In this document: piece by piece, positions 1 to 7,154 of the stretch | Layout of the letters: every line of letters begins with the position of its first letter | Position numbering within the stretch: the first letter of the stretch is position 1 | IMG/VR virus record: IMGVR_UViG_3300041405_000130 | Length of the DNA stretch: 64,000 nucleotides | Source: a virus | Taxonomy: Duplodnaviria > Heunggongvirae > Uroviricota > Caudoviricetes | Direction: 5' to 3' (one strand) | Notes under the pieces: generated by a model | What the model was told of the DNA's origin: nothing | Databases searched by the model: none | The model's input: only the letters and a program-made list of their open reading frames with translations | Position numbers and translations under genes: made by a program

Positions 1-437
1 GACTATCAGGGAAGGCAAAGCCCGTACCCAAGAGTACCTTACCTTAGTGTCTGGATGATCCCGACTTCGGTAACGCACATGTCCACCAAAGCGAGATGAG
101 GTGGCTACAACGGATTAGTAGATTCCGTCATGGTTAGATTAATGGGATTAGATGCCCAGCCATAGAAGGTGATAGCCCTGTGATTGTAACCTTCCCAGTA
201 GATTACTCCCGTAAAGAGGCTACTGGGCCTTATTCATGATTACTTGCCCTCCATCGTACTGAAGCTTTGTATGGCGAGTAAGTAGATAAACCTTTCGGAA
301 CGGTACGACCTCTAGCGGAATGCCGCAACCAGCCCGTGCTGTACATTAGGATGAAAAGCTCGCCCAGCGGCGATCTACCAACGGCCTCTTGTCCGTGGAT
401 AACCAGGGCTTGAATCCTGGATGCTGGGAACGATTTC

Positions 438-524
438 GCGGGGATGGTGGAGCGGTATACGCAGCGGCCTTAAAAGCCGCCGCCCAACTGGGCTCGCTGG
501 GTTCGAATCCCGCTCCCCGCACCA
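438..524 (+). tRNA. tRNA-Leu (anticodon TAA), type II with long variable arm, CCA encoded
   Basis: Acceptor GCGGGGA/TCCCCGC, anticodon arm GCGGC-CTTAAAA-GCCGC, T-loop GGTTCGAATCC, discriminator A, then CCA. Confidence 0.85.
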
Positions 525-530
525 AACATA

Positions 531-560
531 GTGCCTGCCTTTTGGGCAGGCTTTATGCCG
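531..560 (+). terminator. GC hairpin (GCCTGCC-TTTT-GGCAGGC) followed by TTTATGC, after the tRNA; extended -10 TGATATAAT follows at 565-573
   Basis: Read directly from sequence; same stem-TTTATGC arrangement recurs window-wide. Confidence 0.5.
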
Positions 561-564
561 CGTT

Positions 565-573
565 ATGATATAA
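565..573 (+). promoter_or_regulatory. Extended -10 sigma70-like promoter TGaTATAAT upstream of CDS 592
   Basis: TGnTATAAT match; RBS GGAG at 581-584 and ATG at 592 downstream. Confidence 0.45.
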
Positions 574-591
574 TCTTAATGGAGCATAAAT

Positions 592-1317
592 ATGTTCGAA
601 TCACTATTGTCCAGTGGCCACCCAGGCGCTGCAGAAACGGGGGATGTGGTATTCCTATATGACCCTGTTACAAATACGGATCTTGTTGGTGGTCCAGCAG
701 TAACCACACTATCGGGTGGTGCAGTCGCAGATGAAACTATTTTGATCAATGGGCAACCTACTCTTAAATTTCCATCCGTAACAGCAAAACATGTTATTAC
801 ATTTCCTACGGATCTAAATTTAGTCCAAGGTAATTGGACATTGGAGTGGTCGTTTATCAACAACAGTGCGCCAACAGCTTATGCCAACGATTTCGTAATG
901 TACTCTAGAACTGGTGGTGCAGGCGTTGGTCTATATACCCGTTTTGGAGATGGTGGGTTCCTTAACCGTTGGGTATTGTCAGATCCAAGAGGTGCAGCAA
1001 CTCCGAGTCTCACGCAACCTTTACCGTTCACTAAAGCAGCATTGGTTGGGTTAACGACTAACGTAGCCCTGGTCAGTATTGCCGGCGTCATCCGGGTATA
1101 CGTTAACGGCGTAGCTACAATGATGGCCCTGGGTAACGGTAGCACCAACTACAACCAACCTACCTTTATAGCTGAAGGTATGGACAAGATTTATGCATTT
1201 GGTCTAGGTGATGTCAACTCTACTGTTCGAGCAGTACCAGGGAACCGTGGTCGTATTCGACTAAGTAACTTTGCTAGATATAAGAGCAACTACACTCCTG
1301 GCCCATTGACCCTGTAA
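592..1317 (+). CDS. Hypothetical protein embedded in tRNA cluster; concanavalin-A/LamG-like beta-sandwich suspected (RVYVNGV motif)
   Basis: 241-aa ORF, ATG with GGAG RBS 8 nt upstream; weak motif-level resemblance to LamG/lectin folds only. Confidence 0.55.
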   Translation: MFESLLSSGHPGAAETGDVVFLYDPVTNTDLVGGPAVTTLSGGAVADETILINGQPTLKFPSVTAKHVITFPTDLNLVQGNWTLEWSFINNSAPTAYANDFVMYSRTGGAGVGLYTRFGDGGFLNRWVLSDPRGAATPSLTQPLPFTKAALVGLTTNVALVSIAGVIRVYVNGVATMMALGNGSTNYNQPTFIAEGMDKIYAFGLGDVNSTVRAVPGNRGRIRLSNFARYKSNYTPGPLTL

Positions 1318-1345
1318 AAAAATACTACCAGTGTAATAATATACA

Positions 1346-1430
1346 GCGGACATGGCGGAATTGGTAGACGCACTGGATTTAGGTTCCAGCGCCGCAAGGC
1401 GTGAGAGTTCGAGTCTCTCTGTCCGCACCA
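1346..1430 (+). tRNA. tRNA-Leu (anticodon TAG), type II, CCA encoded
   Basis: Acceptor GCGGACA/TGTCCGC, anticodon loop TTTAGGT, long variable arm, T-loop GTTCGAGTC, discriminator A + CCA; close to the enterobacterial tRNA-Leu pattern. Confidence 0.9.
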
Positions 1431-1524
1431 AACGTGCTCTACGGAGCCAACAAGTAAGAGCGTAATCGTTAACGCTTCGTTAACCGAGGTCATGGTGAGA
1501 AAGGAGTGTGGTTCGATTCCACAT

Positions 1525-1556
1525 GATAAGTCTTAAGGACAATAAGCCTTAAGTAA
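1525..1556 (+). other. tRNA-like T-arm fragment (TGTGG-TTCGATT-CCACA) with no pairable acceptor stem; possible tRNA remnant or small RNA
   Basis: Canonical T-loop seen but no 5' acceptor complement in the upstream 100 nt; adjacent perfect hairpins (CTTAAGG...CCTTAAG 1551-1574; ATCGG...CCGAT ~1601-1616). Confidence 0.3.
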
Positions 1557-1631
1557 CTCTGGTGAGACAAATGGTTCGGCCAGCTAGGCCGTTAAATGCA
1601 TCGGCGGAATCCGATCAAGTAGCAAAGTTTT

Positions 1632-1719
1632 GGAAGTATGGCCGAGTGGGTTAAGGCAGCAGTCTTGAAAACTGCCGGGTGTAACAGCCCCTAGAGTTCG
1701 AATCTCTATGCTTCCGCCA
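1632..1719 (+). tRNA. tRNA-Ser (anticodon TGA), type II, CCA encoded
   Basis: Acceptor GGAAGTA/TGCTTCC, anticodon loop CTTGAAA, long variable arm, T-arm TAGAG-TTCGAAT-CTCTA, discriminator G + CCA. Confidence 0.9.
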
Positions 1720-1726
1720 ATTTAGA

Positions 1727-1813
1727 GCTGAGATGGCAGAGTGGACGAATGCGCGGGATTGCAAATCCTGTTTCGAAAGATCATCGGGGGTTCAAATCCC
1801 TCTCTTAGCTCCA
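1727..1813 (+). tRNA. Atypical tRNA with Cys identity (anticodon GCA, discriminator U73) but a ~15-nt variable region and 3-bp D-stem; CCA encoded
   Basis: Acceptor GCTGAGA/TCTTAGC (one G-U pair), anticodon arm CGGGA-TTGCAAA-TCCTG matching the canonical tRNA-Cys anticodon arm, T-arm GGGGG-TTCAAAT-CCCTC; extra TTTCGAAAGATCATC between the anticodon and T arms. Confidence 0.6.
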
Positions 1814-1814
1814 A

Positions 1815-1890
1815 GCCGTTATAGCTCAGTAGGTAGAGCAACTCACTTGTAATGAGAAGGTCGCGGGTTCGATTCCTGCTGACGGCACCA
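1815..1890 (+). tRNA. tRNA-Thr (anticodon TGT), CCA encoded
   Basis: Acceptor GCCGTTA/TGACGGC, D-arm GCTCAGTAGGTAGAGC, anticodon loop CTTGTAA, T-arm GCGGG-TTCGATT-CCTGC, discriminator A + CCA. Confidence 0.9.
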
Positions 1891-1939
1891 GATACGACGA
1901 AAACTCGTTGTTGCAACATTGGCCTTAGAGCCCCTTCGC

Positions 1940-1968
1940 ATTGGCTCGCCTTCGGGTGAGCTTTATGC
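1940..1968 (+). terminator. Hairpin element ATTGGCTCGCC-TTCG-GGTGAGC + TTTATGC after the tRNA cluster
   Basis: UUCG tetraloop hairpin followed by U-rich tract; a member of the repeated intergenic element family. Confidence 0.55.
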
Positions 1969-1994
1969 CCACAATCAATCAAGAGGAATTTACA

Positions 1995-2381
1995 ATGTAT
2001 CCACACAACTATTTCCCTAAACGTAAAACAGCAGCTGAGCGTCTGCGTGACGGCGAAGCATATCGGGCAATGTTAGATAAACAAACAGCAGCCGAAGCAG
2101 AGCGTACTCGGTTCAAAGGACCTGAGCCAATCCAGGAAGCCATAGTGGCTTATGGAGCTGGCTTACAACCATACTTCAATGACATCCGGGGTGATAGCAC
2201 TTGGAGCAATGCACAGATCTGTGGTAAGTTAGAAATAGCCATGCATGAGATCCGTGACGGCTTTACCGAAAGGCAGAAAGCTTATAAGACATATGAGCCT
2301 ACGGTTGTATTTGTAGAAGAAGGCAGACGTGGATATTTCTCGTTGCGTTTAGATGGTTGGGAAATAGGGAAGATTAGCTAA
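1995..2381 (+). CDS. Hypothetical protein (128 aa)
   Basis: ATG at 1995 with AAGAGGA RBS; the ORF-track start at 1941 (MARLRVSF) is a TTG inside the hairpin element and is rejected. Confidence 0.55.
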   Translation: MYPHNYFPKRKTAAERLRDGEAYRAMLDKQTAAEAERTRFKGPEPIQEAIVAYGAGLQPYFNDIRGDSTWSNAQICGKLEIAMHEIRDGFTERQKAYKTYEPTVVFVEEGRRGYFSLRLDGWEIGKIS

Positions 2382-3262
2382 TGGATCTTATCTTTAAGCA
2401 ACATGTTTCACAACTCGATCAATCGGTTAACTTCGAACACCGCTTTGCTGACCACCCTGGGATGCTAGAGGCACGTTACGTACGTCGGGTTGATGACTAC
2501 TTCATTGTTTACTTGTCTTCTCAGACAGGTTGTGAACAGGCTTGCCGGATGTGTTGGCTGACAGCAACAGGGCAAAACAAGACACGCGATGTTACTGTAC
2601 AGGAATACTTGGACCAGGCTAAAGAAGTCCTCAAGTATTACGATGAACGTAACCCAGCTAAGATGGTACACTTTAACTTCATGGCACGCGGTGAACCATT
2701 CGCCAATAAGATCTTTCTAGAGCATGCAGATGAAGTATTGGCTGGACTCGCCACTTTAGCTAAAGAACGTGGACTGGAATACAAGTTCCTGATTTCTACG
2801 ATCTTTCCCGAAGAGGTAGGGTACATTGATCTTACTGAGATCTTTAAAGAACCCGCGTTATATCCAGAACTGTACTACTCTATCTACAGCATGGACAAAA
2901 AGTTCCGTAGACGGTGGTTACCAAAGGCAGCCTCCCCAGAACGAGCATTAGACGAATTAAAGGCATGGCAAGAGCACACGGGTAAAATCCCAAAGATTCA
3001 CTATGCGTTCATTAATAATGAAAACGATAGTCTTGGTGCAGTTAAAGCGATCTGTGACGAAATCGTTGAACTAGAACTCGATGTGAATTGGAACGTAGTT
3101 CGTTATAATCCACCAGAAGGACATTACTCCAAGGAAACAGTAGAAGGGCAAATACACTACCTAGCTGGTTACATTCGTAGTCGGTTACCTAAGGCACGTG
3201 TTAAAGTAATCCCTCGGGTTGGTACGGATGTCCAAGCGAGTTGTGGTACGTTCTTGAAATAA
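2381..3262 (+). CDS. Radical-SAM enzyme of the RlmN/Cfr family (adenosine C2 methyltransferase acting on tRNA A37 / 23S rRNA), N-terminally truncated relative to bacterial RlmN
   Basis: SSQTGCEQACRMC is the C-x3-C-x2-C cluster in the RlmN context (compare SSQVGCALECKFC), TATGQNKTRDVTVQE matches RlmN STAQQGFNRNLRVSE, the MARGEPFAN motif (compare GMGEPL) and a C-terminal ...ASCGTF (compare AACGQL) catalytic Cys. Confidence 0.7.
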   Translation: MDLIFKQHVSQLDQSVNFEHRFADHPGMLEARYVRRVDDYFIVYLSSQTGCEQACRMCWLTATGQNKTRDVTVQEYLDQAKEVLKYYDERNPAKMVHFNFMARGEPFANKIFLEHADEVLAGLATLAKERGLEYKFLISTIFPEEVGYIDLTEIFKEPALYPELYYSIYSMDKKFRRRWLPKAASPERALDELKAWQEHTGKIPKIHYAFINNENDSLGAVKAICDEIVELELDVNWNVVRYNPPEGHYSKETVEGQIHYLAGYIRSRLPKARVKVIPRVGTDVQASCGTFLK

Positions 3263-3573
3263 AATACTGGTGCTGTAATAGTATACGACCAAGGCATGTG
3301 TTGTAAGCGGTTTACATGCTGAACGGTGGAAGATACAAATAACAACGACGGCTGTCAACCGTCAAACCGAATGTCTTATTTACGCATGTGACAGTGTGTC
3401 TATAAGAAGGTCGTGTAATAATGTTGTGGATATCCGATAGGGCCAGCCATTGGGTGCTGGACGTAGATATCTTCAATCTCTTATTAGGCGGCGCCGGATA
3501 ACACCAAGATCTCTGATTAATTGGGGATAGAGCAGGCCGGCCTTGGAACTATCTGGTTTAACTTAAGTATTGA

Positions 3574-3600
3574 GTCCTACCTGCGGGTAGGGCTTTATGC
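3574..3600 (+). terminator. Hairpin element CCTACC-TGCG-GGTAGG + CTTTATGC
   Basis: Same element family, plus orientation, in the 420-nt non-coding gap. Confidence 0.4.
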
Positions 3601-3699
3601 TGTGTAAAAGAATACTCGCGGTAATACAATATACAGGACTATACGTTCAAGCACTTAGAAAGTTACGAGCATCGTAATTAACGCTTGAAAGGTATAAAC

Positions 3700-4011
3700 A
3701 TGTTTTACAACGATTGGTCCGAAAGTGGTATTGATGGTTTGATGTCTGACTTCTCCATTCACGAAAGTGATTTGGCTGGTGTAACAATCATTCACGCTGA
3801 CTATACTTACGAAGATTACAGTGGGTCCGCCTACGTGCTCTACGTTAAGGAAGGAAAGTATTATGAAGTCCATGGTTCTCACTGCTCCTGTATGGGACTG
3901 GAAGGACAATGGGAGCCTGAAGAATGCGCCCTGTACGAGTTGGCAGAAATGCTAACACGCCGAGGTGATTCCGTCATCGGTAAAGACCTTCAATCTTACT
4001 TGGATAGATGA
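3700..4011 (+). CDS. Hypothetical protein (103 aa)
   Basis: ATG at 3700 after an AAAGG RBS (ORF-track start 3685 is TTG); acidic small protein. Confidence 0.5.
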   Translation: MFYNDWSESGIDGLMSDFSIHESDLAGVTIIHADYTYEDYSGSAYVLYVKEGKYYEVHGSHCSCMGLEGQWEPEECALYELAEMLTRRGDSVIGKDLQSYLDR

Positions 4012-4029
4012 ACTGTAGTTCTGTAGCAA

Positions 4030-4058
4030 AGGAGTTCCCTTCGGGGAGCTCTTATGCC
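4030..4058 (+). terminator. Hairpin element GAGTTCCC-TTCG-GGGAGCTC + TTATGC
   Basis: UUCG tetraloop hairpin, plus orientation. Confidence 0.5.
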
Positions 4059-4129
4059 GTTGTGTAGAAATACTCGATTGGACAATGTAGTGAACCAATA
4101 ACCGTTAATCCCGCAATGAGGTTAGGACC

Positions 4130-4483
4130 ATGCGATTCAATTGGGAACCCGGTCGACAAGGAACAGGTTACGAGAAATTACAACTCTTAAACCGTTGGAA
4201 GTTCTTTAGTCGATTTAAATGGGATCTTTACTTACTGCGTTACCCGGTAGGCTCAGGTATCCCTAGACATCGTGATCCATTACCTAACCACAGGCATTAC
4301 CGGTTAAACATCTATCTGCGCAACGCAAGTGCAGGTGGTGTCCCTGAACATGATGATGTAATCATAAGCAACCGCTTCTTTACATTGTTCAGACCAGATT
4401 TGTCAACACACAGCGTTAGCCCCGTAACTAAAGGTACGCGCTATGTCTTAAGCTTTGGCTTATCAAAACAAATTAACGTCTAA
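4130..4483 (+). CDS. Small 2-oxoglutarate/Fe(II)-dependent oxygenase-like protein
   Basis: H-x-D (RHRDP) ... H (THSVSP) ... R-x-S (RYVLS) motif arrangement typical of the 2OG-Fe(II) dioxygenase double-stranded beta-helix; GAGG RBS. Confidence 0.5.
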   Translation: MRFNWEPGRQGTGYEKLQLLNRWKFFSRFKWDLYLLRYPVGSGIPRHRDPLPNHRHYRLNIYLRNASAGGVPEHDDVIISNRFFTLFRPDLSTHSVSPVTKGTRYVLSFGLSKQINV

Positions 4484-4511
4484 ACTCTCTTTCCATCCGC
4501 GTGAGGTTTAT

Positions 4512-5777
4512 ATGAAACAAGAAACAAAGACATTTGAAATCATTGGTGGAGAACCCGAACCGGGAACTAAACCGATCAAAGGCTGGACTGTCGGCGTGCC
4601 GGTAGAACCAGAAGCTGTTAAACAACTGAAGAACATTGCTGCACTTCCGTTCATCTATTCCCACGTCGCAGTAATGCCTGACGTTCATTTGGGTAAAGGT
4701 GCAACGGTTGGTTCTGTGATCGCTACTAAAGGCGCTATCGTGCCAGCAGCAGTCGGTGTAGACATTGGGTGCGGAATGGCAGCCCAACGCCTGCGCTTCT
4801 CCTCAGACGCGCTTCCAGAGTCTCTGGGGCATCTCCGTGCCGCTATTGAATCGTGCGTACCTCATGGACGTACGGATAATGGCGGTAAGAACGATCGTGG
4901 TGCTTTTGGTACCGTGTCTATCTTCAATCATCAAGTGAAAGCTGTACGCGAAGAAGCTGAAAAGCTCCGCCGGCAACTGGACTCGATTGTTGAACGGCAT
5001 CCAAAACTGAAGCGTGCTTCTGAGAAAGCCTGGAACCACGTAGGTACACTTGGTACAGGTAACCACTTCATCGAACTGTGTCTAGATGAAACAGATCGTG
5101 TGTGGATTATGCTGCACTCTGGTTCTCGTGGTATTGGTAACGCTATCGGTTCGTACTTCATCGAGAAAGCCAAAGAAGAGATGGGTCGGTTCTTCATCCA
5201 TCTGCCGGACAAAGATCTGTCATATCTTCCAGAAGGTTCCCGTTACTACAACGATTACGTTGAAGCGGTATCCTGGGCGCAGCGCTTTGCTGCATTGAAC
5301 CGTTCGGTAATGATGCACGCTGCACTGGGCGCTATTCACCGTACGTTGGGTCTGCCGATTGATTCTGATATGGAAGCAATCAACTGCCACCACAACTACG
5401 TGTCTGAAGAACGACACATGGGACAAAACGTTATCGTAACTCGTAAGGGTGCGGTAGCTGCTCATGAAGGTACTCTGGGGATCATCCCTGGATCGATGGG
5501 TGCTAAGTCTTTCATCGTTCGCGGTAAAGGTAATCGTGATTCCTTCTGCTCGTGTTCGCATGGAGCTGGTCGTGTCATGTCGCGTACCCAAGCTGCCAAG
5601 ACCTTTACACTGGAAGATCACATCCGTGACACAGCTGGTGTTGAATGCCGTAAGGATATCGAGGTAATCGATGAAACACCTAAGGCATACAAAAACATCG
5701 AAGACGTGATGTCTGCTCAGGAAGAACTGGTAGATATCGTTCATACACTGAAACAATTCCTGTGCGTGAAAGGATGA
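4512..5777 (+). CDS. rtcB: RtcB RNA 3'-phosphate/2',3'-cyclic phosphate to 5'-OH ligase (tRNA/RNA repair)
   Basis: Hallmark RtcB motifs GTLGTGNHFIE, CHHNY and SHGAGR; 421 aa from ATG 4512 (GAGG RBS); the ORF-track start at 4455 is TTG. Confidence 0.9.
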   Translation: MKQETKTFEIIGGEPEPGTKPIKGWTVGVPVEPEAVKQLKNIAALPFIYSHVAVMPDVHLGKGATVGSVIATKGAIVPAAVGVDIGCGMAAQRLRFSSDALPESLGHLRAAIESCVPHGRTDNGGKNDRGAFGTVSIFNHQVKAVREEAEKLRRQLDSIVERHPKLKRASEKAWNHVGTLGTGNHFIELCLDETDRVWIMLHSGSRGIGNAIGSYFIEKAKEEMGRFFIHLPDKDLSYLPEGSRYYNDYVEAVSWAQRFAALNRSVMMHAALGAIHRTLGLPIDSDMEAINCHHNYVSEERHMGQNVIVTRKGAVAAHEGTLGIIPGSMGAKSFIVRGKGNRDSFCSCSHGAGRVMSRTQAAKTFTLEDHIRDTAGVECRKDIEVIDETPKAYKNIEDVMSAQEELVDIVHTLKQFLCVKG

Positions 5778-5778
5778 T

Positions 5779-6738
5779 ATGGACTATACCGGATTCTGCC
5801 AAGCCGTTGAGGAGTTTGGATTAAAACATGTACGGGATGTGTCGAGTAGTTATTACTTAACACAAGCCCAAAAATACGTTTACATCATCGGACGTATCAA
5901 CGAAGATCTTCGGCGCAGGTTCCCTGATGCCGAATTCCAAACCGATTCTTGGTTTGACTTTGACCACGGCGACATAACCAAACAACATTGGTTCGTGTCA
6001 TCTACAATCTACCAAAATGACCGCGCATTCCAATACCAGATCCGTATTATTCAAACGTATCTGCAGGAAGGTAGCGACTACGAAATTGAGAAAAAGGAAA
6101 GACCATACATGTCACGATTCCAAGACCGCGTACAGAAATACAGCCTCGACATCTTTGCTGAACTGACAGTCGATGCTAGTCTGTCTTCCAGCGAGTTCAT
6201 CACCAAGTTCGAGAAAGCACTTATCGATAAACTAGAAGAGACCTATGACCGTAAAGGTTTTGAAGTGTCCCTGACAGTAAGTCATGGTAAGAGTGTTGTA
6301 TATACTGCTTCGGTAGAAGATGCCATTGATGGTGCGGAAGTTACACTGGAAATTGGTCGTGAAGACTACATCGCCTCCACCGAAGAAAAGCCAGGTCTCA
6401 AGTGGACTAAAGACTTCAGTCTTGAAGCTGTTTATAAAGAAGATCCTGAGTTCTTCAATAAACTGTCTAAGGTTCGGGCAACGATTGAATTCAGTCGTAT
6501 CGCTACTAATGCACTGACTGATGCTTTCTTGACTAACGAAGAAGCTGTGGACAAGAACCTCGGTGCTTCCGTTATCCACGATTACGTAGCGCAGAAACTA
6601 CAAGAAGCAGCACCACCTTGCGAGTTCACTATTAAAGTGGAAGTTGAAAATCGCACGGCAACGCTGCACGTAGAAGAAGCTACCACCAAAGTTAAGTTCC
6701 GCTTGCGCGCAACTCGTGAACTGGATACTGCTGAATGA
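5779..6738 (+). CDS. Hypothetical protein (319 aa) immediately downstream of rtcB
   Basis: ATG with AAAGGA RBS; no recognisable motifs. Confidence 0.55.
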   Translation: MDYTGFCQAVEEFGLKHVRDVSSSYYLTQAQKYVYIIGRINEDLRRRFPDAEFQTDSWFDFDHGDITKQHWFVSSTIYQNDRAFQYQIRIIQTYLQEGSDYEIEKKERPYMSRFQDRVQKYSLDIFAELTVDASLSSSEFITKFEKALIDKLEETYDRKGFEVSLTVSHGKSVVYTASVEDAIDGAEVTLEIGREDYIASTEEKPGLKWTKDFSLEAVYKEDPEFFNKLSKVRATIEFSRIATNALTDAFLTNEEAVDKNLGASVIHDYVAQKLQEAAPPCEFTIKVEVENRTATLHVEEATTKVKFRLRATRELDTAE

Positions 6739-7145
6739 AAAAGATTGTAATTGCTTTGGCCATCGCTTTTGCGTTGGCCGTTCCGGCTCATGCAGCTAGT
6801 GTTGTTCGTCAACACTCTGCCTGGGTGGAGTCTGCTAACTGTGTGTTGGTAGATCGTAAAGAATCCGTATCCGGTGGATTGGTCGGTGGTGCCGTAGGTG
6901 GTGTTGGTGGCGCTCTGGTTGGTAGCCTGTTCGGTAAGAAAGGACGTACGTTAGGTGCAATCGCTGGTGGCCTAGGTGGTGCAGCTTATGGCTCGTCTGG
7001 TGAAAAGATTTACAACTGCACGTTGCTCGCTACATTGCAAGATGGTTCCAAACACATGATCACTAAGATCACCAATACCCAAATCACGACCCAAGACAAA
7101 ATCGGTGTAGCTGAATTGTCTGATGGTTCTTTCCAAGCCCTCTAA
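6735..7145 (+). CDS. Secreted glycine-zipper protein (signal peptide, then a GxxxG-rich segment)
   Basis: N-terminal MKKIVIALAIAFALAVPAHA signal; GGLVGGAVGGVGGALVGSLFG glycine-zipper motif. Confidence 0.55.
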   Translation: MKKIVIALAIAFALAVPAHAASVVRQHSAWVESANCVLVDRKESVSGGLVGGAVGGVGGALVGSLFGKKGRTLGAIAGGLGGAAYGSSGEKIYNCTLLATLQDGSKHMITKITNTQITTQDKIGVAELSDGSFQAL

Positions 7146-7154
7146 GGTTAACAC

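Follow-up and report, generated by a model that had tools for sequence, protein, structure and literature searches.

The radical SAM gene and its surroundings

The window, a 64,000-nucleotide stretch from a virus of the class Caudoviricetes (IMG/VR record IMGVR_UViG_3300041405_000130), carries on a single strand a cluster of tRNA genes, a small open reading frame, a gene for a radical SAM protein and a gene for an RNA ligase (Table 1). Translation verifies the radical SAM reading frame and its motifs; its start codon overlaps the stop codon of the preceding frame (TAATG), and a GGGAAG sequence lies about 8 nt 5' of the ATG. A preliminary description of this DNA had placed the gene directly after the tRNAs, and the cluster does lie upstream, but the 128-aa frame intervenes. 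That frame matched nothing in Pfam or PHROG, and its conservation stops at the nearest relatives among Pseudomonas phages (6 loci), so that it does not qualify as a partner of the family at large.

The RtcB gene follows 1.25 kb downstream of the radical SAM gene, and this synteny is retained in 8 related loci; we regard RtcB as genomic context, and a functional link between the two as putative. The tRNA layout of the window recurs in the relatives D6 and L086-L096. A scan of positions 1-9000 against Rfam, including the 420-nt gap 3' of the radical SAM gene, recovered tRNAs only; a scan for sigma-70 promoters and terminators yielded no more than shuffled controls did; and RNAalifold, applied to four near-identical sequences of the odd tRNA-Cys, returned neither a cloverleaf nor covariation.

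Table 1. Features of the radical SAM locus, in window coordinates
Feature	Position	Strand	Evidence or remarks
tRNA cluster (Leu-UAA, Leu-UAG, Ser-UGA, Cys-GCA, Thr-UGU)	438..1890	+	ARAGORN; Rfam tRNA matches
128-aa ORF	1995..2381	+	Stop overlaps radical SAM start; no assigned function
Radical SAM gene, 293 aa	2381..3262	+	ATG-to-stop ORF; class-A-like core without N-terminal accessory domain
Y44-LSSQTG-C51-EQA-C55-RM-C58	2510-2554	+	Translation
Tyr44 codon	2510..2512	+	Position of the resolving Cys (RlmN C118, Cfr C105)
C51-x3-C55-x2-C58, [4Fe-4S] cluster ligands	2531..2554	+	Aligned to RlmN C125/C129/C132
G104-E105-P106, SAM-binding GEP motif	2690..2698	+	Aligned to RlmN G179-E180-P181
DVQAS-C288-GTFLK-stop, C-terminus	3227-3262	+	Translation
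Cys288 codon, motif D-V-x-A-S-C-G	3242..3244	+	Equivalent to methyl-carrier RlmN C355 / Cfr C338
RtcB RNA ligase	4512..5777	+	PF01139, E 2.9e-126; PHROG 1075; ATG at 4512

Relationship to RlmN and Cfr

By sequence and fold, the nearest characterized relatives of the encoded protein are RlmN and Cfr, in agreement with the initial proposal of kinship. The RlmN equivalog model (TIGR00048) ranked best, ahead of the Cfr models and of other radical SAM subfamilies such as QueE or the RNR activase, with matches spanning nearly the full length. The assignment to TIGR00048 nevertheless holds only as to rank, since the score of 67.8 bits falls below the curated cutoff of 290; the Cfr models TIGR04432 and NF000424 gave 37.5 and 45.6 bits against cutoffs of 550 and 530, and PF04055 (E 1.2e-5, 25.9 bits) remained under its gathering score of 29.5. 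A profile search of the PDB returned Cfr and RlmN chains only, and the top structural matches were all radical SAM enzymes. Homology and fold are established by these results: the protein has the RlmN-type fold (a radical SAM core with a beta-extension), and the CX3CX2C cluster motif, the SAM-binding motifs and the structural matches place it in the radical SAM superfamily.

RlmN of E. coli (PDB 3RFA, 5HR7), a dual-specificity class A radical SAM methylase that forms m2A2503 in 23S rRNA and m2A37 in tRNA (TIGR00048), is about 18-20% identical to the phage protein. It has an N-terminal helical domain of ~85 residues and a C-terminal tail, both of which the phage protein lacks: the alignment begins at position 78 of 355 in TIGR00048 (residue ~87 of E. 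coli RlmN), as expected from the reported absence of the N-terminal domain, and at the other end the ~24 C-terminal residues of E. coli RlmN have no counterpart. Residues C118, H235, E278 and W311 of RlmN correspond to Tyr44, Y169, H207 and Y242. Cfr (PDB 9P0P), a 23S rRNA m8A2503 methylase conferring antibiotic resistance, is the best PDB match (E 5.5e-5 with the single sequence, 1.4e-16 with the profile) and has the core and the C-terminal Cys (C338) in common with the phage protein, in which its N-terminal domain is absent and its C105 is replaced by Tyr44. In the published Cfr-rRNA model, Y97, W101, S151, S153 and Q329 lie within 5 Å of A2503; these align to R36, Y40, H97, N99 and R279, all of which are conserved in a manner specific to the family of the phage protein (hereafter the Tyr family). 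RlmN is a housekeeping gene, whereas the Tyr family is carried by phages and mobile elements.

Judged from its sequence, the phage protein is not an orthologue of RlmN or Cfr. Nor is it simply a truncated RlmN, as had been suggested, in that it belongs to a separate family of ~290-aa proteins that scores 68 bits against 290 and has an invariant Tyr in place of the resolving Cys.

True members of this family, with 66-74% identity, include PHROG 27142, gp434 of Pseudomonas phage 201phi2-1 (UniProt B3FJU2), and the copies in phages D6 and Psa21, none of them different in kind from the window protein. The PHROG 27142 match (E 1.6e-148) covers residues 1-293 against profile positions 2-300 of 300, and comparison with the BFVD model gives a TM of 0.97; the window is a new species-level relative. 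In phage D6 the order is the same: tRNAs, a small ORF, the radical SAM gene, then RtcB. The gene is not unannotated, contrary to first appearances: PHROG 27142 is labelled 'Fe-S-cluster redox domain-containing', the D6 and Psa21 copies have been auto-named 'ribosomal RNA large subunit methyltransferase N', and JGI records likewise label family members as RlmN. Literature searches returned no paper on the Tyr family and no biochemical data for any member.

Two further short RlmN-like proteins, gp170 of Tunturiibacter phage Tunturi_5 and gene_104 of Klebsiella phage 05F01 (23-25% identity to the window protein), likewise lack the N-terminal domain and keep a C-terminal [AS]-[AS]-C-G-M-F motif. 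Seven residues ahead of their first cluster Cys, Tunturi_5 has Cys and 05F01 has Val (with a Cys at -4), so that the Tyr marks out the family of the window protein. Spore photoproduct lyase (PDB 4FHC), of a different subfamily, is a mechanistic analogue only: it lacks the C-terminal methyl-carrier loop, and the similarity is confined to the cluster region (E 0.06).

A tyrosine at the position of the resolving cysteine

Class A radical SAM methylases, of which RlmN and Cfr are the named members, are defined by "two conserved cysteine residues", and the resolving Cys is reported to be indispensable in both enzymes (PMC9692996). The phage protein has the methyl-carrier Cys, since Cys288, five residues short of the C-terminus, aligns to its RlmN and Cfr counterparts, but where those enzymes have the resolving Cys it has Tyr44. 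The preliminary description had rightly recognized the GEP motif, the C-terminal catalytic Cys and an RlmN-like SSQ-GC context around CEQACRMC, but overlooked this Tyr, which precedes C51 by seven residues and is matched to Cfr C105 and RlmN C118 in three independent alignments (phmmer, profile HMM and MAFFT).

The replacement is a property of the whole family. Tyr occupies position 44 in 118/118 close homologues, in 148 of 150 representatives of the 50% clusters, in 47/47 viral loci and in 62/63 cellular loci, and is conserved as strongly as C51, C55 and C58, which are invariant among both close homologues and cluster representatives. Cys288 is equally constant (120/120 close homologues, 149/150 representatives), and its C-terminal segment has a low pLDDT (51-57), which in the predicted model is consistent with a mobile loop. 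Among the 150 representatives there is no conserved substitute for the resolving Cys; of two candidates, C225 occurs in 29 of them, and residue 43 is a Cys in 37. The RlmN/Cfr signature residues that are kept and near-invariant in this set, with RlmN equivalents in parentheses, are E30 (E105), S46 (S120), G104-E105 (G179-E180), S139, S167, R176 (R242), N215-D216 (N286-D287), N238, N243-P244 (N312-P313), G281, D283, A286 and C288-G289. With neither a resolving Cys nor another conserved Cys to stand in for it, the textbook turnover mechanism cannot operate as written.

Distribution and genomic context

The Tyr family comprises at least 420 clusters at 50% identity, with protein lengths of about 280-310 aa throughout; the N-terminal extensions of five longer members contain no Pfam domain and are possibly miscalled starts. 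Such strong purifying conservation over so many clusters argues for an active enzyme. Among viruses the carriers include T4-like phages and jumbo phages, to which the phage of the window belongs; outside them, the family occurs on bacterial islands and on megaplasmids of Pseudomonas, plasmid-borne copies having been sought by tblastn. The gene is thus not phage-only: 77 loci lie in bacterial species genomes and megaplasmids. Genes for AbiEii, reverse transcriptase and Band_7 proteins adjoin some bacterial copies. The PADLOC-DB v2 HMMs detected no defense-system match in the query and six family members. Ten neighbors of the copy on megaplasmid pMPPla107 gave no Pfam match of any kind, which makes that setting uninformative.

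Within ±10 kb flanks, tRNA arrays accompany the gene in 2 of 17 viral protein clades, the second of which has them at only 3 of 10 loci; the cellular copies have no tRNA arrays. At three loci (L105, L108, L123) 15-31 tRNA genes surround it on both sides as an array. Other neighbors also have to do with RNA or tRNA: in CcrColossus and in Brevundimonas phage Marchewka a tRNA nucleotidyltransferase (CCA-adding enzyme) gene follows at a distance of 1.7-2.4 kb, and L006 has genes for PTH2 and a ribosome hibernation factor in the vicinity. Elsewhere the neighbors are of other kinds. In L113-L116, and again in L130 of a separate clade, a RecA/UvsX-like gene overlaps the start of the radical SAM gene, and a gp32-like gene is close by; an NAD-dependent DNA ligase gene lies directly upstream in L109, L111 and L112; and L106 and L111 have a metallophosphoesterase gene as the next one downstream, as one also adjoins the Mesorhizobium copy. 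A dUTPase-like gene is downstream of the Neorhizobium copy, RNR and toprim genes are near that on an Acidiphilium plasmid, and a PARP-like gene adjoins the gene in another clade. The ORFs directly up- and downstream in 48 viral loci include no family-wide partner protein.

Discussion

The Tyr family is a branch that travels for the most part on mobile elements, large phages among them, and its members probably still methylate a nucleic acid, by a non-textbook route. Our preferred reading, to which we assign a probability of roughly 45%, is that the phage protein is a stand-alone member of a distinct branch of class A (RlmN/Cfr-type) radical SAM methylases, a C-methylase of nucleic acid, likely RNA, in which Tyr44 acts as the resolving residue. 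A first SAM would methylate Cys288 on the flexible C-terminal loop; a second, bound to the C51/C55/C58 [4Fe-4S] cluster, would be reductively cleaved to a 5'-deoxyadenosyl radical that takes a hydrogen from the S-methyl group of Cys288; and the resulting methylene radical would add to an sp2 carbon of the nucleobase, forming a covalent enzyme-substrate adduct. The role of the resolving Cys is itself still debated, as either a general base or a disulfide or thiosulfuranyl partner. Invariant Tyr44 could resolve the adduct in place of this second Cys, serving as a general base and/or as a relay of hydrogen atoms or radicals for a Cys288 thiyl radical. The retained motifs, the Cys-to-Tyr replacement, and the distribution and contexts of the family are, like its homology and fold, observed; that a methyl group is transferred, what Tyr44 does and what the substrate is are inferred.

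An adenine in RNA is the most likely substrate, and phage or host tRNA the leading candidate. Because the N-terminal domain is gone and the residues aligned to those modelled near the target base of Cfr (R36, Y40, H97, N99, R279) differ, the site or substrate is probably different from that of RlmN. The tRNA cluster upstream and RtcB downstream, in the window as in D6, count for a role in RNA or tRNA; the RecA/UvsX-like, DNA ligase, metallophosphoesterase, PARP-like and dUTPase-like neighbors count against a general role in tRNA. The link to tRNA is suggestive only. The earlier proposal that the phage modifies its own tRNAs draws on a context present in only some lineages, and the five tRNAs beside the gene are of kinds not known as canonical m2A37 species in E. 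coli. Related phages do have, in their upstream arrays, tRNAs on which the E. coli RlmN acts (His, Asp, Gln, Glu and Arg-ACG).

These latter tRNAs, the common fold, the top rank of the RlmN model and the RlmN labels in D6, Psa21 and JGI records would all suit a truncated but functional RlmN or Cfr orthologue, making m2A37 in tRNA and/or m2A or m8A at position 2503 of 23S rRNA by the standard two-cysteine mechanism. We nonetheless consider such an orthologue improbable, in view of scores far below the RlmN and Cfr cutoffs, the loss of the N-terminal domain, the lack of a resolving Cys in essentially the whole family, and the different, family-specifically conserved residues at the Cfr positions near the target base; in addition, hosts such as Pseudomonas are expected to have an RlmN of their own. 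Another unlikely reading is that class-A-like chemistry is applied to DNA, a free nucleotide or another metabolite, in phage DNA metabolism, repair or modification and not in translation. The DNA-metabolism neighbors described above and the loss of the accessory domain speak for it; however, because genes of phage nucleic-acid metabolism cluster anyway, adjacency is weak evidence, the tRNA arrays, RtcB and the CCA-adding enzyme point the other way, and no known class A enzyme acts on DNA or small molecules (PMC9692996).

Two readings dispense with methylation as the outcome. In spore photoproduct lyase, Cys and Tyr residues serve as a relay of hydrogen atoms and radicals, and Cys288 and Tyr44 might do the same in radical repair, isomerization or a lyase reaction on nucleic acid, which we hold to be rather improbable. 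Scarcely credible is a single-turnover or trapping protein that inactivates or marks host RNA by a permanent adduct, or one that is catalytically dead. C118A RlmN does build up a covalent RNA adduct (PMC9692996; PDB 5hr6/5hr7), but all SAM and cluster motifs are conserved, a stoichiometric suicide protein directed against abundant RNAs would be costly, and the family also occurs on bacterial chromosomes and megaplasmids. That position 44 holds an invariant Tyr, and not just any residue, implies a selected catalytic role.

Returning to the nucleic-acid C-methylase, a more ambitious version, which we put forward as speculation and rate as doubtful, is that a Tyr has taken over from the supposedly indispensable Cys, that the adduct is resolved in a new way (by a tyrosinate base or a Cys-Tyr radical relay), and that the enzyme sets a C-methyl group on a site, in phage-encoded or host tRNA, that the host RlmN does not modify, so that, together with RNA repair, it counters defenses that target tRNA. 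RtcB in the window and the CCA-adding enzyme in the Caulobacter phages would then help to keep the tRNA pool working, and the same conflict is hinted at by divergent nucleotidyltransferase genes of AbiEii type that adjoin bacterial copies.

For annotation, the labels 'RlmN' and '23S rRNA (adenine2503-C2)-methyltransferase' are over-specific for the Tyr family and their propagation is unwarranted; a Cfr-like antibiotic resistance due to these proteins is unsupported. For enzymology, a large natural family with the methyl-carrier Cys, but with Tyr in the place of its resolving partner, offers nature's own test of what the resolving Cys does, and it may reveal a new substrate for class A chemistry. 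For the phages themselves, an RNA C-methylase encoded among their tRNAs and beside RtcB would, if the interpretation is true, add a further layer, that of modification, to the emerging view that phages defend the tRNA pool.

Results

All motifs quoted in the preliminary description were recovered on translation of the radical SAM gene, including the C-terminal cysteine, and the protein contains only five cysteines (51, 55, 58, 225 and 288). Its start codon overlaps the stop of the upstream ORF (TAATG), and GGGAAG, resembling a Shine-Dalgarno sequence, lies about 8 nt 5' of the start. The gene had been placed directly after a tRNA cluster: the tRNA genes are indeed upstream, but a 128-aa ORF intervenes after the last of them.

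Features of the radical SAM region (window coordinates unless a locus is named)
Feature	Position	Strand	Remarks
Five tRNA genes	438-1890		Leu-UAA, Leu-UAG, Ser-UGA, Cys-GCA, Thr-UGU
241-aa ORF between two tRNA genes	592-1317	+	resembles part of PHROG 3545, a large phage protein family; weak Laminin_G_3 match
tRNA-Cys (anticodon GCA)	1727-1813	+	84-87 nt across this copy and the relatives in the next row, with 14-15 nt variable region; Ser/Leu-like D-loop; discriminator U73
Class-II-like tRNA-Cys, relatives	L086:9434-9520; L094:9367-9452; L001 (phage D6):5454-5537
Upstream 128-aa ORF	from ATG at 1995	+	preceded by AAGAGGAA; start is the most plausible choice
Radical SAM gene, 293 aa	2381-3262	+	ATG-to-stop ORF
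YLSSQTG-C51-EQA-C55-RM-C58	2510-2554	+	translation
G104-E-P106	2690-2698	+	translation
DVQAS-C288-GTFLK-stop	C-terminus of radical SAM protein	+	translation
Stretch without genes, ~420 nt, 3' of radical SAM gene	3263-3684		no Rfam match; no convincing promoter or terminator on + strand
108-aa protein	3685-4011	+	PHROG 8792; motif HGSHCSCxGLEGQWEP; also in Pseudomonas-jumbo relatives and, within its tRNA array, in unrelated viral contig L105 (6217-6570)
117-aa protein just upstream of RtcB	4130-4483	+	weak 2OG-Fe(II) oxygenase match (PF13640, E 2.6e-4; PHROG 13746); too short for AlkB
RtcB RNA ligase, full-length	4455/4512-5777	+	PF01139, E 2.9e-126; start probably ATG at 4512
136-aa glycine-zipper protein	6735-7145	+	PF05433; signal-peptide-like N-terminus

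Pfam returned a sub-threshold Radical_SAM match alone, and the top NCBIfam match was neither QueE nor an RNR activase but the RlmN equivalog TIGR00048 (E 7.9e-19, 67.8 bits; query 12-290 against profile 78-341 of 355), with several models of Cfr and RlmN ranking next. A family profile of 64 members retrieved from the PDB only Cfr (9p0p, E 1.4e-16) and the RlmN chains 6fz6, 3rf9, 4pl1 and 5hr6. The AlphaFold2 model built from that 64-member alignment is confident (pLDDT 91.4, pTM 0.89) except for the last ~13 residues, C288 among them, and Foldseek placed RlmN structures at the top (TM 0.75-0.80), ahead of Cfr, with PFL-activating enzyme (0.52) next. The phage protein resembles RlmN and Cfr in its fold, its cluster, its SAM motifs and the loop with the methyl-carrier cysteine. 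It nevertheless belongs to neither group of orthologues: it scores 68 bits against an RlmN cutoff of 290 and 38-46 bits against Cfr cutoffs of 530-550, and lacks both their N-terminal domain and their resolving cysteine. About 85 residues at the start of E. coli RlmN are unmatched, as had been proposed, and the last ~24 also have no counterpart; the idea of an isolated, truncated RlmN fails: the protein belongs to a large family whose members are ~280-310 aa long. The original interpretation as a whole holds only in part.

Class A radical SAM methylases have two conserved cysteines beyond the cluster ligands, and the resolving one (RlmN C118, Cfr C105), most likely a general base, is indispensable to resolve the covalent enzyme-RNA adduct (PMC9692996). 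This cysteine stands seven residues before the first cluster cysteine (C-V-S-S-Q-V-G-C in RlmN, C-I-S-S-Q-C-G-C in Cfr), where the phage protein has Tyr44 (Y-L-S-S-Q-T-G-C), a replacement that the preliminary description overlooked. The placement agrees among phmmer against Cfr, MAFFT with E. coli RlmN, and profile alignments with Cfr and two RlmNs. Tyrosine occupies the position in 118/118 sequences within the closest 120 homologues, in 148 of 150 representatives of separate 50%-identity clusters, and in 47/47 viral and 62/63 cellular loci, so that its conservation is on a par with that of C288 (149/150 representatives) and of the three cluster ligands. C225 is not conserved, and a cysteine at position 43, beside Tyr44, occurs in only 37/150. 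More distant short phage relatives have Cys at -7 (Tunturi_5 gp170, gut-phage contigs) or Val at -7 with Cys at -4 (Klebsiella phage 05F01), which makes the tyrosine a specific mark of the present clade.

Many further RlmN/Cfr signature residues are kept across the 150 representatives (E105, S120, G179-E180, S213, S233, R242, N286-D287, N307, N312-P313, G348, D350, A353, C355-G356), alongside a family-specific set (S10, D13, S15, N17, R32, R36, R103, Y165, Y166, Y169, W179, H207, Y242, E252). Residues within 5 Å of A2503 in the published Cfr-rRNA model, mapped through the profile alignment, correspond to R36, Y40, H97, N99 and R279; because these differ from Cfr yet stay conserved, the alignment suggests a target site different from that of Cfr.

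The family comprises 1984 proteins at E ≤ 1e-5 in a 90%-clustered collection, and a profile search reached 420 50%-identity clusters at E ≤ 1e-30 and 927 at E ≤ 1e-10. Members occur in 201phi2-1-like Pseudomonas jumbo phages (RVTF4, Psa21, D6, 201phi2-1 gp434, Viktualia, Phabio; 66-74% identity), Caulobacter phages CcrColossus and CcrPW (46%) and eight Brevundimonas phages (39-42%). Nor is the family phage-restricted: scanning one genome per bacterial species gave 77 loci, distributed over Planctomycetota, Myxococcota, Saccharibacteria, rhizobia, Acetobacteraceae, Nocardia, Wenjunlia and ~1 Mb Pseudomonas megaplasmids, and PLSDB holds further copies on pMPPla107 and other megaplasmids. Since three cellular loci adjoin tmRNA genes, a common integration site, these copies are consistent with residence in islands. 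The family is already in databases under over-specific names: the D6 and Psa21 records read 'ribosomal RNA large subunit methyltransferase N', and JGI labels an identical metagenomic protein 'adenine C2-methylase RlmN'. It also matches PHROG 27142 (E 1.6e-148), 'Fe-S-cluster redox domain-containing', a label that is the former name of COG0820. Literature searches found no paper characterising the family or noting the Cys-to-Tyr replacement.

One set of neighbourhoods favours tRNA or translation. In both the window and D6 the tRNA cluster is followed by a small ORF, then the radical SAM gene, then two to three further small ORFs and finally RtcB. Synteny with RtcB is kept in eight related loci, and RtcB and the tRNA cluster together hint at tRNA maintenance as a theme of the region. 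The viral-contig set comprised 47 loci; of the 14 that fall in the Pseudomonas-jumbo clade, 13 carry between 1 and 13 tRNAs upstream of the gene, at a distance of no more than 10 kb. A second viral clade (~45% identical) has the gene inside arrays of 23 (L105), 15 (L108) and 31 (L123) tRNAs, with a tRNA within ~400 bp on both sides in L105 and L123 and, in L105, one 13 bp downstream. Such arrays are confined to 2/17 protein-level viral clades, and to 3/10 loci of the second. A tRNA nucleotidyltransferase lies 1.7-2.4 kb downstream in CcrColossus and Brevundimonas phage Marchewka, and PTH2 and a ribosome hibernation factor are near the member at L006. Four of the five tRNAs adjacent to the window's gene have A37; in E. 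coli these five are i6A/t6A-type, not m2A37 species. Relatives' arrays include His, Asp, Gln, Glu and Arg-ACG tRNAs. The class-II-like tRNA-Cys, an unusual form that has the U73 typical of tRNA-Cys, is kept in four related jumbo phages.

Elsewhere the context points away from tRNA. In L113-116 and, in a separate clade, in L130 a RecA/UvsX-like gene immediately precedes the family member, and a gp32-like gene is close by. In other loci the gene lies directly 3' of an NAD-dependent DNA ligase (L109, L111, L112) or directly 5' of a metallophosphoesterase (L106, L111); a metallophosphoesterase also adjoins the member in Mesorhizobium (L072). A PARP-like gene is near the member at L106, and a dUTPase-like gene follows the Neorhizobium copy. 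In at least seven Planctomycetota MAG loci (L012/L007, L021, L025, L030, L032, L038, L052) it is divergent from a conserved operon that encodes an AbiEii-type nucleotidyltransferase (PF08843), an LRR protein and a sulfotransferase, with reverse transcriptase and Band_7 genes alongside in L007. This looks like a defence-island-type context; a canonical AbiEi antitoxin was not seen there. PADLOC gave no defence-system match for the phage protein or six family members. On pMPPla107 (L137; NZ_CP031226.1 532898-551737) the member lies in a co-directional run of ~12 genes encoding proteins of 270-570 aa, and none of ten neighbours tested had any Pfam match. No partner ORF is conserved family-wide.

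Discussion

The best-supported reading, to which we assign a probability of roughly 0.45, is methylation by a class-A-like ping-pong mechanism in which Tyr44 replaces the resolving cysteine. SAM would methylate Cys288; the S-methyl group would be activated by the 5'-deoxyadenosyl radical; the resulting methylene radical would attack an sp2 carbon of a base; and Tyr44 would deprotonate the adduct and/or quench the Cys288 thiyl radical. A tyrosine is a plausible chemical stand-in, given the current opinion that the resolving cysteine is a general base (PMC9692996). Our confidence is held down mainly because the role of Tyr44 is itself a proposal.

Four other explanations are less probable. RlmN is the closest match by profile and fold, but a plain RlmN/Cfr orthologue is quite improbable, as equivalog score, N-terminal domain and resolving cysteine all speak against membership. 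Class-A-like chemistry acting on DNA or nucleotides, beside which the RecA, ligase and dUTPase neighbours may be set, is unlikely, though it is the alternative we take most seriously. The conserved pair Tyr44 and C288 could instead serve as a radical relay without any methylation, as in spore photoproduct lyase; we regard such a relay as improbable. To a trapping or dead protein, in a family with so conserved a set of residues, we give almost no weight.

The mixed neighbourhoods point to nucleic-acid metabolism on mobile elements as the common denominator, and tRNA is the leading but unproven candidate substrate. The significance of the finding is tempered in that the family is widespread and already annotated and its link to tRNA is contextual; what stands out is an invariant tyrosine at a position held to be indispensable, together with recurrent placement of the gene in phage tRNA arrays.
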